Source of the DNA: a virus
DNA length: 64,000 bases
IMG/VR virus record: IMGVR_UViG_3300033153_009458
Span: 64,001 to 128,000 of that record
Strand: one strand, 5' to 3'
The translations under genes and the position numbers were made by a program. Shown here one piece after another: positions 1 through 20,683 of the stretch; the first letter of the stretch is position 1; each line of letters opens with the position of its first letter. The notes under the pieces were generated by a model. The model worked only from the letters and a program-made list of their open reading frames with translations, was not told where the DNA came from and did not search any database.

Positions 1-344
1 TTTGCTAACTCCCAACTCGCCATAATATGTTTTGGGAGTTTATTTTTTAATTCTTTATTACAAACAAAAAATGTGTGATGACCGGGTACTGTTGTAACAA
101 CTTCAATAATAAAATATGGATTATTATCTTCATTATCCAAATCGAATTTTATAAATCTTGGATTAATTTGAATATCGTCCAAAATAAATGTAAAATCTTC
201 TGGTCTTTCGTTATTAATTAATGGTATGTGAAAATTTGAAATCATTTTACCTTGATTTTTAGTGTGATGAATATTCCATGCTGACCATCCACTTTTTTCA
301 AAATATCTTTCAAAACCACTAAAACCCTGATCAACTATTTTTAT
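1..344 (-). CDS. Partial hypothetical protein running off the left edge; start is ATA at 344 or ATG at 245
   Basis: Manual translation: open frame from directly after the gp43 stop (IKIVDQGF...) to the window edge, ending ...KLPKHIMASWELA. Confidence 0.6.
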   Translation of the reverse strand, partial: MKIVDQGFSGFERYFEKSGWSAWNIHHTKNQGKMISNFHIPLINNERPEDFTFILDDIQINPRFIKFDLDNEDNNPYFIIEVVTTVPGHHTFFVCNKELKNKLPKHIMASWELA

Positions 345-2907: not shown

Positions 2908-4320
2908 TTACGCCAGATCATCGTCAAATAAAATATCTTTCTCATCACCGTCTTCATCAAATTCATTAATTGCGCCTTTTTTTTGTTGATTTTGATAATC
3001 AAGTCTATCTTTAACAGCCACCGGTATTACTTGCTCAGATTCTTCTAAATCGTATAATGTCATTTTGTGTTTATTAACTCCAACTGTATAGTATTGATCT
3101 ACGTTTGCACCGAACCGAGTTTTTAAAACTTTAAAAACATATTTGTTTTGTTCAGCCATTTCATCATTTTGAAGAATCGACATCATACAATCAAGAGTCA
3201 TCGGAATACCGAATGAATCCGAAGTATCAGTCATTGAACTATCTTTGACTGTTTTCTCTGAACCGGCTCTATTTGTTTGAGTAGCCGTAAGCACTGCTAC
3301 ATTTTCTTCAACTGCAAGTGCTCTAAATTCTTCTGTGATTGCTTTAATATATCGATATGAGTCTGAACCCTGTGAAGCTGGTAATCTACAAGAACTAAAA
3401 ATATTCAGATAATCAATGATAATAACATCTGGTTTAAAATCGTTCTTTTTTAATTTAAGTTCTCGTAAAAAATTCTGAATGTGTAATTTGTTTGCTGTAC
3501 CGGTTGGGTATTCTTTAATCAACAACCTACCCATTTTTTTCGTTGTTAGAATCGACTTGATTCGTTCTTTATAACTTTTTTTACTTAAGTTTATATCGAA
3601 TTGATGCATATCCATATTCAGAATATTTGAGTCAATTCTTTGGTACAACATTTGTTCAGACATTTCACCCGACACGTAAAGAACATTATATCCTTGACGT
3701 GTAAAATCAGCGGCCATATGACAAAGAACAAGAGTCTTACCTATATTTGATCTACCTATGAAAGCCGATATAGTCTTTCTTGGCAAGCCGCCACAAAAAG
3801 CGTTATTAATAGCCTCAACACTTGTTTCGAATTTCTCTTCATCCGATATATAGAAATCATACTGGCTACCATAATCAAACATATATTCCATTCCTAAAGA
3901 ATGTTTAAAATCAATTGATATGGCTTCTTTTACTTTATCGTATATTTGAGTTTGTGATCCTTTTTCATCAATAATTTGAACTGATTCCAAAATAGCTTGT
4001 TTCAAAGATTCTTCTTGAACCCACTTTTCAGTTTCATCAATTACGAATTCTAGATTTTCTTTAATTGGAATTTTCTTTAATCTGTTTAATTCCTTAATTG
4101 TTTGAGCTGTTGAATCTAAATCAATATTTTGATCTCTCTCTAGTAATAATTTTACTTCGTCGTAATCTGGACGCTTCGAATATTTGTCAGTATAAATTTT
4201 TATTTTATCAAGTATGAATCGATACTCTTTATCATCTATTATTTTTTTATCTATGTACGGATATACTATTGAAAAAAATCTATCGTTACTGAGCAAATAA
4301 CTAAAAATAGTTTTTAGCAT
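2908..4320 (-). CDS. 41: DnaB-like replicative helicase (gp41-like)
   Basis: GRSNIGKT Walker A, YVSGEMSE, IKEYPTG, IIIDYLNI, TATQTNR, SDSFGIPMTLD. Confidence 0.95.
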   Translation of the reverse strand: MLKTIFSYLLSNDRFFSIVYPYIDKKIIDDKEYRFILDKIKIYTDKYSKRPDYDEVKLLLERDQNIDLDSTAQTIKELNRLKKIPIKENLEFVIDETEKWVQEESLKQAILESVQIIDEKGSQTQIYDKVKEAISIDFKHSLGMEYMFDYGSQYDFYISDEEKFETSVEAINNAFCGGLPRKTISAFIGRSNIGKTLVLCHMAADFTRQGYNVLYVSGEMSEQMLYQRIDSNILNMDMHQFDINLSKKSYKERIKSILTTKKMGRLLIKEYPTGTANKLHIQNFLRELKLKKNDFKPDVIIIDYLNIFSSCRLPASQGSDSYRYIKAITEEFRALAVEENVAVLTATQTNRAGSEKTVKDSSMTDTSDSFGIPMTLDCMMSILQNDEMAEQNKYVFKVLKTRFGANVDQYYTVGVNKHKMTLYDLEESEQVIPVAVKDRLDYQNQQKKGAINEFDEDGDEKDILFDDDLA

Positions 4321-4326
4321 TTTCTC

Positions 4327-4614
4327 CTATAATTTTATAAAATCCTTCGTTTGTTTCGTTATTTTTATTCGTCTTACTATGTCTTCACCAGACATTTTTT
4401 CTATATCTTGTGGTTTTAAATCTATACTTACTTCGTATGAATTTGGTTTATTCCGTAATAATTGAATATGCACCACAATTTTTTCAACATTATTCCAATC
4501 ATCATTATTATGATCACCGCTTTTGAAAATAATATCCAACCCATCCGGGCCGTACCCAAACGGATTCAATTTATCATAAATCATCTGTATTAAAGGATCG
4601 TCAATAAAATTCAT
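4327..4614 (-). CDS. Small hypothetical protein, C-terminal-motif family
   Basis: Ends QTKDFIKL; ATGA overlap with upstream gene. Confidence 0.8.
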   Translation of the reverse strand: MNFIDDPLIQMIYDKLNPFGYGPDGLDIIFKSGDHNNDDWNNVEKIVVHIQLLRNKPNSYEVSIDLKPQDIEKMSGEDIVRRIKITKQTKDFIKL

Positions 4615-4877
4615 AAATCTAAAAGATCCTTTGCTAATGATGTTGCTTTTACTAAACTTCTCAATTCATCCAACTCGAAATAATCACGGGCTGTTTGATG
4701 AATTATTTTACCTTTTTCGAATATTTCTATTCTTATCTGATCAAGATCATCTATTGTTTCAATCAATCCTGTATAAGTGTTAATTACAAATGACTGAACA
4801 CCTTTATTATACAGAGTTTCCTTTAAAATATCAATAGCTACATCATCAGGTATAACTTGTTTATCTATTTCTCCCAT
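4611..4877 (-). CDS. Small hypothetical protein, C-terminal-motif family
   Basis: Ends LAKDLLDL. Confidence 0.8.
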   Translation of the reverse strand: MGEIDKQVIPDDVAIDILKETLYNKGVQSFVINTYTGLIETIDDLDQIRIEIFEKGKIIHQTARDYFELDELRSLVKATSLAKDLLDL

Positions 4878-5027
4878 TTAATATCCTGTATATGAATTTT
4901 TTCTTGCCGTTTGTGATCGTTTAAGATCTTGTTTATGATGATATTCAGATAATTTGTATCCAAATGTTATTGCTAAAAAATTTGAAATTATATAAATTCC
5001 TATTAAAAGAAGCCATAACCACCACAT
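4878..5027 (-). CDS. 49-aa membrane peptide (not in ORF track)
   Basis: AGGAG SD then MWWLWLLLIGIYIISNFLAITFGYK...; fills the gap, TAAATG coupling to the next gene. Confidence 0.7.
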   Translation of the reverse strand: MWWLWLLLIGIYIISNFLAITFGYKLSEYHHKQDLKRSQTARKNSYTGY

Positions 5028-5036
5028 AATATTCTC

Positions 5037-5285
5037 CTATAAATTGATGAAATCGTACGCACTGCCTTCAATTCTATTGAATCTAAATATTTTTACGTAA
5101 TCATCTTTTGTGTACACTGAATTAAGAATTATTGTTTCGTAACCATCGGTTCTTTTATCGTAATAATGAACAAGTAAAAGTTGATGAACTTCATTCGGGA
5201 ATAATGTTTCCATTTTAACAATAATACAATCACCGAATTCTGTTAAAGCTTCATCAAAAATTGCAATTAACTGTTCTCCTTTCAT
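5037..5285 (-). CDS. Small hypothetical protein, C-terminal-motif family
   Basis: Ends SAYDFINL. Confidence 0.8.
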   Translation of the reverse strand: MKGEQLIAIFDEALTEFGDCIIVKMETLFPNEVHQLLLVHYYDKRTDGYETIILNSVYTKDDYVKIFRFNRIEGSAYDFINL

Positions 5286-5587
5286 TATAACTCCATAAAA
5301 TCGTGTGCGGCCATATGAATCTTAAATTTGGCATCAAGTAAACCCGCCATATCTTGTATGCATCCACCGTTCCAAATTTTCATTTCTTTTCGACTAACCG
5401 GTATTTTAATTTCTACTTTTGGTTTACTTGGAAAATGTAAATAAAAAATTAAATGATTATCCAGTACATCCCTAGCGTACGTAATACCACTCGGAAATAA
5501 TTTGTACTGTCGATTCGCAAAAAAATATGACATTATTTCTCTGTAAATCGGCATTCCTTTCTGAACTGTTATTTCTTTCCAAATCAT
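5285..5587 (-). CDS. Small hypothetical protein, C-terminal-motif family
   Basis: Ends AAHDFMEL. Confidence 0.8.
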   Translation of the reverse strand: MIWKEITVQKGMPIYREIMSYFFANRQYKLFPSGITYARDVLDNHLIFYLHFPSKPKVEIKIPVSRKEMKIWNGGCIQDMAGLLDAKFKIHMAAHDFMEL

Positions 5588-5862
5588 AATTCAATAAGAT
5601 CCTTCGCTGTATAGAATATTGCTGCTTTTCTAAGTTCTTCTATTATTTTATCTAATAAATCAACATCATCGAATTCAACTTTATAAATTTTGAGCGAATG
5701 AGATATACCATTTATTTCATCACGATAAATCATATTTAAATAAGCCGAATCCTTGTATATTTTATTAGACCATTCACAATATCTATAACTGAATCTTGGA
5801 TACTTTAATAAAGCATCATGACAACAAGCCCACACTTCATAAAGATTTCGATCTTCAATCAT
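5584..5862 (-). CDS. Small hypothetical protein, C-terminal-motif family
   Basis: Ends TAKDLIEL. Confidence 0.8.
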   Translation of the reverse strand: MIEDRNLYEVWACCHDALLKYPRFSYRYCEWSNKIYKDSAYLNMIYRDEINGISHSLKIYKVEFDDVDLLDKIIEELRKAAIFYTAKDLIEL

Positions 5863-11778: not shown

Positions 11779-12573
11779 TTATTTCTCCTTGCAATTTAAA
11801 TTATGATATCTTTCAAAATTGTTTATTCCTATTGCTTTTTTACAATAAGGGCATTGTTTTTTAATATATTTTAATCCTAATTTTGCTTTGGACACACTTT
11901 CAGAAATTTTTTGTTTATGTGCATCTGTCAATTTAATACCTTTTTTGCTTTTGCTAATATTTTTTTTATGTTCAGGACTTTTTACTTTACCTTTAGCCGA
12001 TTTGCTCATTTTTATTTTTGTTTCTTCAGAATGTTTTTTACCTAACATATTTTTGTTACCTAATTTCGATAAACTGACATTTTTATTCCATTTTTCTGTA
12101 TGAAAAATATTTTTGTGTGCATTACCAATTTTATCTTTAGTTTCTTTAGAAAAAATTCTTCCTAATGCTTTTTTCTTTATTTTATCTTTTGTTTCATTTG
12201 AATGAACATAACCACTTCTAGTTATTACCGCTTTTTTAATTATATCAGGATGTCTTAAATAAGTCAAATCACGTTGTTTTGCTATATTAGACATTTTTAT
12301 TTTTGTTTCTTCAGAATGTTTTTTACCTAACATAGAAGGTGTTTTATATGTCCTATTTTTTATAATTTGTTTTAATATTTCTTCTTTACCTATTTGACCA
12401 GATAGTGCTTTCCAAGCAAGTTTATCTTGCCAGCGATCATATTCTTCGTACAAATATAAATGCACAGCTGCGTGTCCTGATATTGTTAAATAAACAAGAT
12501 TTGATGGATCGTCGGTACCACCTAAATGCTTAGGAATAATATGGTGTTTGTGTTTATAGATAACATTTATCAT
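11779..12573 (-). mobile_element. Free-standing HNH homing endonuclease with NUMOD3 repeats
   Basis: HKHHIIPKHLGG..NLV.LT..H; MLGKKHSEETKIKMS twice; C-terminal CPYC. Confidence 0.88.
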
Positions 12574-18141: not shown

Positions 18142-18176
18142 TATTTATAACAGCAAATCGTCTGCTTTTATAAATA
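18142..18176. promoter_or_regulatory. Divergent pair of late promoters
   Basis: TATAAATA on minus (18142-18149) and plus (18169-18176) strands at the strand switch. Confidence 0.75.
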
Positions 18177-18201: not shown

Positions 18202-18576
18202 ATGGATTACGAAATGATATCTTTTGAAGAAATGCTCGAAGAAGCTCACGAGCAAATATTAATAGAAAGGAGAACTGTTCAAAAACTGAAGAAAGTTCTT
18301 GCTTGGTCTAAAAAAATCACTAAATTAGGTGCTAGAAGGAATAGAGCAGCTTTTAAGAGAACACACGGCACATCAGGACAGAAAATTAAGACCAGATCGA
18401 AATCAACTATTCGTAAAATGGCTAGAAATCTTAAGAAAATTTCACGTCGAACAAAACAAAAAAGAAAAACTTCAGTAAGAGTAGGCAAAAATGTTGGACG
18501 GACTATCCGAAATTTGATCGGTAAAGAACGTCAAAAGCAAAGAAACAGAGGCGTTAAGAACATTGAACATCGGTAA
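18202..18576 (+). CDS. Basic protein, possibly gp68-like prohead core protein
   Basis: Acidic N-terminus ending ILIE, then K/R-rich body (RNRAAFKRTHG); late promoter. Confidence 0.45.
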   Translation: MDYEMISFEEMLEEAHEQILIERRTVQKLKKVLAWSKKITKLGARRNRAAFKRTHGTSGQKIKTRSKSTIRKMARNLKKISRRTKQKRKTSVRVGKNVGRTIRNLIGKERQKQRNRGVKNIEHR

Positions 18577-18579
18577 CTA

Positions 18580-19296
18580 ATGACTTTACCAGTTAGTGAA
18601 GCAAAAAAAATATTTCAAAATCCAAATTTTTTAGATTATAGAGAAAAATCAGCTTATCTATATTTTGCGGGTGATGGTAAAAAACTCAAAGTAGGCGATA
18701 TAGTGGCTGATCAGTATAACATACTAGGGTACGTGAAATTTATGTCTGAAGAAAAAGGGGCGTTTGTGCAATTCATTGATGGAATTGAAGGGTACACCAA
18801 AGAATTAAATTTAAAATTTAATCGGGTGCCGGGTGCAAATATCAATCAATTTTCACAACACGTAACTAAATTTGGTGAACTCGCCAAGGTGGGTCGAATT
18901 ATGGTGGAGTCCTTGAAAAAGACATTCCCACACGCTCATATGTTTAATAACGGTGAACAGATATTTGTAAGGGCATCAACAAATAAAAGAATAGTCACAC
19001 AATTTACTAAAGTGCAATTAGCGCACTCACATTCATTTTTTTCAGCTGTATTGATACCGAGATTTAAGGTTGTGATTGATTCTTTTATTGTTAAGTACGC
19101 TGATCAAAAAAGCCGGTTCTCTTACACAACTTTAAAAAATTTATTTCAAGATTTAGATCAAGGATTAGACAACAGATCAAGATTCAAATGGCATATAGAA
19201 ATAGGACACGATGACAGCTATAATTTATTCGTTTGGCGGGTAATTCACAAAACTTTTTCAAAATTTCAATTCAAAGATATAGAACACAAAAACTAA
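18580..19296 (+). CDS. Hypothetical protein
   Basis: 238-aa ORF in late operon. Confidence 0.7.
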   Translation: MTLPVSEAKKIFQNPNFLDYREKSAYLYFAGDGKKLKVGDIVADQYNILGYVKFMSEEKGAFVQFIDGIEGYTKELNLKFNRVPGANINQFSQHVTKFGELAKVGRIMVESLKKTFPHAHMFNNGEQIFVRASTNKRIVTQFTKVQLAHSHSFFSAVLIPRFKVVIDSFIVKYADQKSRFSYTTLKNLFQDLDQGLDNRSRFKWHIEIGHDDSYNLFVWRVIHKTFSKFQFKDIEHKN

Positions 19297-19333: not shown

Positions 19334-20683
19334 ATGTTAAAACTTACTATAAGAGGGCAAACAATATGGGTGAAAGAATGGGCTGCGTATCATCCAACAG
19401 CTGATGCTCATGAACAAGATATTACAATTCCTGTGACTACAGGTGCCGCAATTGATGGTCAATATATCACATTGACTGATGCTGGAGATGAAACAAAATA
19501 CGTTGTATGGTTTAATGTACCAACAGCCGCCGAAGTATCAACAGTTCAAGCAATTGACGATGTTGGTGGTGCACTAGGTGGAAAATATTTTACTTTAAAT
19601 TCACTGACTACCAAATATTATGTTTGGATGTCAATTGGTGAAAAACAACAAAATACTTATACAGCTAGAGCCGATTCGGGTGGTGATTTAGATAACAAAT
19701 ATTTTACTTTTTATACATTAGATGCAAACAACGGAACAAACGTTAAGTGGGGTGTTTGGTATGATGTAGATGACGCTGGTGGTGCACCTGTTATGTCAGG
19801 CGTATTAACAGCAAATGAAATCGAAGTAGATATTGCAACAGGTGAATTAATTGGTGCTGTATCCAGTTTAACTAAAGCCGCAATTGAAACCGCTCTGGGT
19901 TCACTCGCAACAGTTACATTATCAACTAATGATACAATTATCACGAATACTTATTTTGGTACAGTGACAGCACCTATCACGGATGGTGATGTAGGCGGTG
20001 GAGCCGTTTTTGATGATACAAACGCTGGTGTAGCTGATAGTACAGATCCGGCAATTGGTGGTTTAACAGGGCTTAAGGTTAATTTTGATGAAGATGCCGT
20101 TGCTAATACAACGATTGCTGATGCAATTGAAGTCATTGTACACGCACAAGCTGATTTTTCAGCTTCAGCCACTACTCATACCGTTACAATTACACATGCT
20201 GCAACTGGTAATCCAGTTGATTTACATGCTGCTAATAGTGGGTTTACAGTAGCCGTTACAACTGGTGGGTATACCGATCTTCTAACAACAAAAGATCCTC
20301 AATTAGCTTATACAACGAGTGTACCAGTTTCTTTAGTAGGTGATGACACAAACACTGAAATTGCTGCTAAACTTGCAACCGCATTAGATGCATTAGCAAA
20401 TTTTGGAGCAAGTGAATCTAGTAATGTTGTATCAATTGTAAATGCTGCTAATGGTGAATGCACAACAGCTGTAAAAGGAACAACTTCTGGATGGACATTT
20501 GCAAATACTACAGTTGGATCAGCTGGATATTTGCCGGGTACGTCTTCTGGTGATTGGATTAAAATTACTGGAAAAATACAAGGTACTGATACAAGTGGAA
20601 CTCCTATTGAAGGTAAATGGGATGCTATCACAAAATGGGTACCAGCGGTTACGCTTACTGAAATTGAAGAAACAAATATGTAA
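19334..20683 (+). CDS. Putative virion surface protein with three nested repeat domains
   Basis: T/A/G/D-rich; homologous to the 8791/9411 paralogs; GGAG SD. Confidence 0.7.
   Translation: MLKLTIRGQTIWVKEWAAYHPTADAHEQDITIPVTTGAAIDGQYITLTDAGDETKYVVWFNVPTAAEVSTVQAIDDVGGALGGKYFTLNSLTTKYYVWMSIGEKQQNTYTARADSGGDLDNKYFTFYTLDANNGTNVKWGVWYDVDDAGGAPVMSGVLTANEIEVDIATGELIGAVSSLTKAAIETALGSLATVTLSTNDTIITNTYFGTVTAPITDGDVGGGAVFDDTNAGVADSTDPAIGGLTGLKVNFDEDAVANTTIADAIEVIVHAQADFSASATTHTVTITHAATGNPVDLHAANSGFTVAVTTGGYTDLLTTKDPQLAYTTSVPVSLVGDDTNTEIAAKLATALDALANFGASESSNVVSIVNAANGECTTAVKGTTSGWTFANTTVGSAGYLPGTSSGDWIKITGKIQGTDTSGTPIEGKWDAITKWVPAVTLTEIEETNM

Follow-up and report, generated by a model that had tools for sequence, protein, structure and literature searches.

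The P0001 protein of an uncultured T4-like phage is likely to be an accessory protein, expressed late and probably displayed by the virion, in which a split beta-barrel base carries three copies of a domain of ~125 residues, nested one inside another. Support for the nesting is indirect, and at the level of the protein family it is strong. The P0001 gene (19334..20683, + strand) encodes 449 aa in an open frame with a GGAG ribosome site upstream, and lies in the window (the whole 64-kb stretch of DNA that was analysed), which is part of the 151-kb record of the phage.

Tiling of P0001 by half domains

The phage encodes two shorter paralogs of P0001. These are P0002 (9411..10019, - strand, 202 aa), with a P0001-type base and one unit, and P0003 (8791..9387, - strand, 198 aa), also with a base and one unit and sharing 53% aa identity with P0002; a six-frame HMM search that covered the phage record in full confines the unit to these three genes. 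The ~125-residue unit consists of a first half, A (strands b0-b1-b2), a crossover loop that opens with G-x-D-P, and a second half, B (b3-helix-b4-b5-b6). HMMs for the two halves were built from 129 contiguous unit copies, that for A running to '..YYVWFNVD' and that for B starting from 'G.DP..', and they give six matches in P0001, all of them significant: A at residues 23-62 (E 1.3e-8), 63-100 (3.8e-16) and 103-146 (1.6e-10), and B at residues 148-234 (E 1.8e-6), 235-319 (1.1e-18) and 320-398 (6.3e-20). The remainder of the protein is residues 1-22 and 399-449 only, and the tiling is complete in the order base-N, A1, A2, A3, B3, B2, B1, base-C.

The first half of the outermost unit, A1 (b0-b2), occupies 19400..19519 and that of the middle unit, A2, occupies 19520..19633, both on the + strand as are all of the segments that follow. 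The six-frame search noted above, which is independent of this tiling, describes the gene as a succession of model positions 9-64, 23-63, 24-143, 65-147 and 67-158, and its pieces for A1 and A2 lie at 19358-19525 and 19523-19639 respectively. The innermost unit, A3+B3 (19640..20035, residues 103-234), is matched by the A and B HMMs and is contiguous, with model positions 24-143 unbroken in the genome search. The second half of the middle unit, B2 (b3, helix, b4-b6), follows at 20036..20290 and that of the outermost unit, B1, at 20291..20527. The host domain in P0001 is discontinuous around a contiguous and complete insert (A1 A2 [A3B3] B2 B1).

BLASTP comparison of P0001 with P0002 gives the same picture. 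Residues 105-192 of P0001 align with 26-104 of P0002 (E 4e-9), such that A3 is continuous with B3; residues 2-60 align with 1-60 (E 2e-4); and residues 326-415 align with 75-167, which places B1 and 'WIKITGK' on the domain end and 'WWRITGK' of the paralog. The first-pass annotation had described three A halves followed by three B halves in this 449-aa protein, and both the HMM tiling and the BLASTP alignments to P0002 bear this out. The three unit copies are only 13-36% identical to each other in pairwise comparisons, and an assembly artefact is therefore excluded.

The same annotation placed all of these segments inside a split base domain, and here the outcome is mixed: the N-terminus and the 'WIKITGK' segment of P0001 do match P0002 by BLASTP, but P0001 matches the base HMM only weakly. 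The N-terminal part of the base (19334..19399, residues 1-22) would provide two strands, and the C-terminal part (20528..20683 including the stop codon, residues 399-449) contains the 'WIKITGK' motif at 403-421. A base-only HMM matches P0001 with an E-value of 3.6e-4 in a search space of one sequence, and the C-terminal end of P0001, 'VPAVTLTEIEE', resembles the 'IVPE..I..I.E' of the base family. P0002 and P0003 are clear members of this base family (M.vKi.G ... f.ki.G ... iVpe..i..i.E), and the split base is the weakest part of the P0001 assignment. In structural comparisons the base portion of P0002 (~55-60 aligned residues across 1..202) matches only small barrels of the Sm/SH3/Tudor-like type, with generic Z scores of 4-5, and as modelled the base resembles a small barrel of the SH3/Sm-like kind.

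A family with single, tandem and nested units

When 1.8 billion representative proteins were scanned in full with P0002, 284 relatives were recovered. Among ~300 distinct proteins the unit is mostly single, but it is also found in tandem (to 8 copies), nested, and in mixtures of these, with nesting depths of 1, 2, 3, 4, 6 and 7. The nested forms include AABB, AAABBB and AAAABBBB proteins, one protein that is six deep (L085), and the 943-aa P0023, which is seven deep and has the same base as P0001. In every complete protein, whatever its depth, the number of A halves equals the number of B halves, and mixed strings such as AAAAABAABBBBBB are balanced too. A search for homologs with zero, two, or four or more nested copies, as the first-pass annotation had suggested, thus recovered depths 2, 4, 6 and 7; no base-only (zero-level) protein was present among the 9,543 ORFs in the loci that were retrieved, which is a small sample.

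The 276-aa P0006 has a different arrangement, in which a complete unit lies within a host unit after b3 (residues 58-77 and 197-255) and not before the G.DP loop. Insertion of a whole unit therefore does occur, and there is a second site that tolerates a whole domain. In three other proteins a segment of ~128 aa, different from the unit, is placed precisely where the innermost A and B halves meet: residues 267-394 of P0005 (three levels), 271-398 of L088 (three levels; ORF 3557-5692) and 304-432 of L085 (six levels; ORF 3-2951). These segments are 82-93% identical to each other whereas the units of the same proteins are only 36-68% identical, as if a variable stalk carried a tip domain that is conserved. 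The segment has no Pfam match. Mirrored indels were sought between the three-level and six-level proteins with this common tip domain, among which the orthology of the units is ambiguous.

The unit is also inserted in major-tail-protein-like and baseplate-J-like proteins of other phages, and it is present in long, possibly fibre-like proteins that have sub-threshold Pfam matches to a YadA stalk and an endosialidase barrel.

Database searches provide little by way of names. No Pfam-A family matches P0001, P0002 or P0003 at E<=1, and tblastn searches with P0002, P0046 and P0004 found no match in 50,697 GenBank phage records. A word-indexed search with P0002 returned its two paralogs only, and the same type of search with the family alignment returned 59 proteins, none of which is informatively named; a cluster look-up gave no names, and the few names available at source are 'hypothetical protein'. 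Sequence profiles do not place the unit in Pfam Phage_sheath_domII or a related model and give weak matches only (PHROG 165 tail sheath, E 0.005; Milano sheath, E 0.1), and its structural neighbours in the ESM Atlas include a Phage_sheath_domII cluster. No nested phage or sheath domains of this kind were found in the literature searched, and neither the nested unit family, nor the span of depths within it, nor its proposed use on a phage particle appears to have been described there.

Genomic setting and probable role

The genes for P0001, P0002 and P0003 are surrounded by homologs of UvsX, gp46, gp47, UvsW and UvsY. The P0002 and P0003 genes are sited between gp46 and uvsX, and the P0001 gene is near the recombination genes uvsY and uvsW, ahead of an array of small genes without assigned functions and outside any tail or head module. 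The P0001 gene comes third in an operon on the + strand (with genes starting at 18202, 18580 and 19334) that is headed by a T4-type late-promoter-like box, TATAAATA, at 18169..18176 on the + strand. This motif occurs 16 times in the AT-rich window where 12.6 are expected, which is no enrichment, and late expression of the operon is therefore only suggested. The first gene of the operon (18202-18576, +) encodes an extremely basic, K/R-rich protein of 124 aa without a PHROG match, and the second (18580-19296, +) a 238-aa protein that likewise lacks one. Elsewhere in the window there is a homing-endonuclease gene (11779-12573, -; PHROG 655/314) that separates the gp47-like gene from the gp46-like one.

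A second T4-like contig, L161 (IMGVR_UViG_3300005264_000030), has the gene order gp55, gp47, gp46, an 859-aa gene, a 204-aa gene, uvsX and gp41. The two genes between gp46 and uvsX (L161:5422-8615) are base-family members, with the 859-aa product having many levels and the adjoining 204-aa product having one. They share the gp46-uvsX slot with P0002 and P0003, again as paralogs that differ in depth, and the slot looks like a conserved late cassette within the replication and recombination module.

We favour a role for P0001 as a decoration or projection of the virion whose reach would be set by nesting depth. Depth differs between the paralogs of one phage, and also between proteins with a nearly identical tip domain. 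The presence of the unit in major-tail-protein-like and baseplate-J-like proteins, the differing depth of paralogs in one slot and the conserved segment between divergent units all point to a surface structure that is exposed, modular and fast-changing. The virion location, and the 'spike' function proposed in the first-pass annotation, are inferred.

The alternative that best survives accepts the nesting but not the projection: P0001 could be a late protein that acts on the host envelope or in the cell interior, or a scaffold that is absent from mature particles. It would fit with a gene that lies amid uvsY, uvsW and small genes of no assigned function with no tail or head module, with a base of generic fold, and with a late-promoter motif that is not statistically enriched. 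We think it unlikely, since every good structural match to the unit is an exterior domain of a virion or flagellum, and the unit is inserted elsewhere into major-tail-protein-like and baseplate-J-like proteins. The location of the gene also loses some of its force in that the T4 decoration genes hoc and soc are themselves outside the main structural clusters.

Pairing of the half domains

If the units are nested then the halves must pair in mirror order, with A1 to B1, A2 to B2 and A3 to B3, and the two types of evidence available at the level of the family, similarity matrices and co-variation, both favour mirror pairing of the flanking pieces. In the seven-level P0023 the matrix of identities among A halves correlates with that among B halves with r 0.79 when they are paired in mirror order, ranking 2 of 5040 possible pairings, and with r 0.19 when they are paired in parallel. 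Mirror pairing ranks 2 of 24 in the same test of the four-level P0004. The test is powerless at n=3, and hence for P0001 and the other three-level proteins.

A Potts co-variation model was trained on contiguous units from non-nested proteins only. By its score the nested pairing in P0001 ranks first of six and each A prefers its mirror B, with B2 the best partner of A2 and B1 the best partner of A1; the margins are small for units 1 and 3, and the result is not significant alone. Nested pairing also ranks first in P0004 (1/24), L085 (1/720), P0005 (1/6), P0024 (1/6) and five AABB proteins (1/2 each), and third in P0023 (3/5040) and L087 (3/24). It is thus first in ten of the twelve nested proteins including P0001 (Fisher p 2e-4). 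As a control, the true pairing was recovered in 18 of 20 tandem proteins with two units (ABAB); the score fails for two tandem arrays of eight similar copies. Part of the co-variation signal may reflect shared ancestry and not physical contact.

Other pairings of the halves are very improbable by comparison, whether these are parallel (A1 with the first B) or exchanged between the subunits of an oligomer. The small co-variation margins of units 1 and 3 in P0001 leave some room for them, and swapping is beyond the reach of sequence tests; but parallel pairing ranks 1732/5040, 22/24 and 218/720, in addition to its low correlation noted above, and it would split A3 from B3, which are contiguous and jointly match an unbroken unit. 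Moreover, in P0123, P0038 and P0006 a complete AB lies within an outer pair, an arrangement that fits nesting only. The first-pass annotation had argued that the order A1A2A3B3B2B1 reflects recursive insertion at one loop and not tandem repetition, and that argument is upheld by the tiling, the balanced composition of the family, the mirror co-inheritance and co-variation of the halves, and the interleaving of A and B strands described below.

Structure prediction for P0001 itself is less informative. AlphaFold2 (AF2) with the single sequence gives a pLDDT of 33, and the ESM Atlas model of P0001 has a pLDDT of 0.76 and a pTM of 0.46. Single-unit proteins that match P0002 across residues 21-160 match the Atlas model of P0001 across 57-329 or 78-326, with no more than 140-159 residues aligned (end points only being available), and these spans are suggestive of A2 and B2 folded around a skipped A3B3. 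Alignment with MAFFT puts the A half of single-unit homologs on A3 of P0001 and their B half on B1 or B2, and it shifts the nested homologs. Because such an alignment would dictate the wrong pairing, AF2 was applied to the one-level P0002 instead. More generally, automatic alignments of nested-repeat proteins can supply structure predictors with wrong couplings.

Fold of the unit and proposed path of the chain

The AF2 model of P0002, computed from an alignment of 23 proteins of the base family plus 103 contiguous units, has a pLDDT of 93.9 and a pTM of 0.82. It begins with two base strands, followed by b0 (24-31), b1 (44-48), b2 (55-62), a 13-residue loop, b3 (76-83), a helix (89-102), b4, b5 and b6 (141-146), and it ends with three further base strands. 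Residues 23-146 of the model superpose best on the outer domains of contractile sheath proteins, including those of cyanophage A-1(L) (residues 91-185; Z 9.7, 2.1 A over 92 aligned residues, VIA), of Mu, PhiTE and Sf14 (Z 8.7-9.3; Mu alone 8.7-8.8) and of Milano (Z 8.6, 26% identity), with the outer domain of the E217 sheath likewise among the systems matched. Further matches are to T4 gp11 residues 80-188 (Z 7.8-8.0), to outer domains of flagellin and FliD (Z 6-8; Stenotrophomonas maltophilia and Pseudomonas aeruginosa flagellins, and FliD D2-D3), and, at Z values of about 7, to nozzle proteins of the T7 type and the auxiliary capsid protein of crAss001. The superposed partners are compact single domains in solved structures, the aligned part of the sheaths being one contiguous stretch of 95-118 residues, and the unit has the fold of the sheath and flagellin-FliD outer domains, with a b-hairpin plus b-a-b-b-b in one compact domain. 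The likeness to outer domains of tail sheaths and flagellins proposed from the letters of the sequence was thus well founded, these and FliD being the best structural matches of the unit.

Co-variation provides separate support. A mean-field analysis covered 286 non-redundant units. Of its 45 strongest pairs, 10 correspond to b2 and b3 in parallel register, and others link b2 with the helix, b0 with b5, and b1 with b4 and b6. The strands of A are woven into those of B, so half A cannot form a domain of its own, and on the P0002 model together with these contacts the A and B halves form one domain.

That A and B are instead separate modules, with an A meander domain and three beta-alpha-beta B domains in tandem produced by two tandem expansions, is scarcely credible: the AAABBB order by itself is compatible with this and the pairing statistics of P0001 on its own are weak, but in the confident P0002 model the two halves jointly match single solved domains of 95-115 residues, co-variation puts b2 beside b3, b0 beside b5 and b1 beside b4 and b6, the A and B counts are equal at every depth in complete proteins, and the A and B copies have a common duplication history in mirror order.

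Taking the halves as one nested domain, the strand geometry from co-variation (a b1-b2 hairpin, b0 antiparallel to b5, and b2 parallel to b3) is such that b0 runs out from the base, b1 back and b2 out again. The site of insertion, where b2 ends, would therefore be at the far end of the unit, distant from its termini. The chain would leave the base after the second base strand to form half A of unit 1, exit at the end of b2 into half A of unit 2, and exit once more to build unit 3 whole, and it would return through half B of unit 2 and half B of unit 1 to the last three base strands. With the insertion point far from the unit termini, each level would stack on the tip of the previous one and depth would set the reach of the projection, which in some relatives would be extended by the foreign domain of ~128 aa placed at the innermost junction. 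Docking on the capsid or the tail would be through the base.

Comparison with known systems

In structure the unit is distantly related to the outer domains of sheath, flagellin and FliD proteins, but P0001 is neither a sheath protein nor a flagellin. It has the same unit fold as the outer domain of contractile sheaths, which is also an externally exposed insertion. However, P0001 lacks the conserved sheath core (Phage_sheath_1 plus C-terminal domain) and has no Pfam match, and the host of the insertion in its family is a barrel of ~60 residues rather than a sheath, with ~70 residues outside the nested units. The levels of T4 gp18 have unlike folds, and in contrast to P0001 it is not a self-nested repeat. 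It is said, in work of Aksyuk et al. from 2009, to be a four-level nest with domain I in II, II in III and III in IV. The finger domain of T4 gp11 matches the unit as one contiguous stretch (80-188) and similarly has no self-nested repeat.

The nested D1, D2 and D3 domains of flagellins are mostly unlike each other, whereas in the P0001 family one unit is re-inserted at one loop, up to seven times. The whole P0002 model, base and unit, lies loosely on D2/D3 of P. aeruginosa FliC (13-197, Z 5.5); P0001 is without the D0/D1 helices and is therefore not a flagellin. Flagellins also extend outward with successive domains enclosed by those that precede them, and they differ in size through the gain of domains; giant flagellins enlarge by duplication and insertion, with duplicated DE regions in tandem, the fold of which is left open (PMC6248924).

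The closest architectural precedent is SI3 of the cyanobacterial RNA polymerase beta' subunit, in which a single small beta domain recurs, each copy lying within another: these are sandwich-barrel hybrid motif domains in a recursive A1-B1-C-B2-A2 arrangement with six levels (PMC13114784). SI3 differs from P0001 in fold, host protein and biology (transcription machinery as opposed to a phage surface protein), and also in that depth in the P0001 family is variable (1, 2, 3, 4, 6 and 7 overall, and 1, 1 and 3 among the paralogs of a single phage). Given this precedent, recursive self-insertion is known as a principle and the P0001 family is a further variant of it.

As to function, a possible analogue is Hoc, a string of small beta domains encoded outside the structural clusters. 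T4 Hoc is a non-essential tandem array of Ig-like domains, variable in length and anchored at one end, with one covalent link between beads. The levels of P0001 are in contrast joined by two chain crossings, and there is no sequence or fold match between the two proteins.

Tandem duplication accounts for nearly all growth of repeat proteins and deep self-insertion is rare, with SI3 the sole well-described case that we found. We raise as a tentative possibility, on balance doubtful, that proteins such as P0001 form a class of surface proteins that grow outward by self-reinsertion at a distal loop, with depth (1-7) acting as an evolvable setting of length; this would be the second deep homotypic case after SI3 and the first virion ruler. 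Each level would be doubly linked and the projection consequently stiff, and it could carry a binding domain at its tip. Together the tandem, nested and mixed forms at depths 1-7 offer a natural series in which to address folding (presumably from the innermost unit outward), the origin of such genes, and stiffness as compared with beads on a string. For annotation and design, there is a loop in an outer domain of the sheath and flagellin type that tolerates insertion of whole domains, and standard aligners mis-pair the halves.

The unit domain is widespread yet unannotated in phages, and it may also be used on bacterial cell surfaces. Five proteins of about 250 aa (P0008, P0094, P0113, P0191 and P0197) have a signal-peptide-like N-terminus, the unit, and a Cys-containing C-terminal region, and ESM Atlas neighbours of ~250 aa are Bacteroidota proteins.
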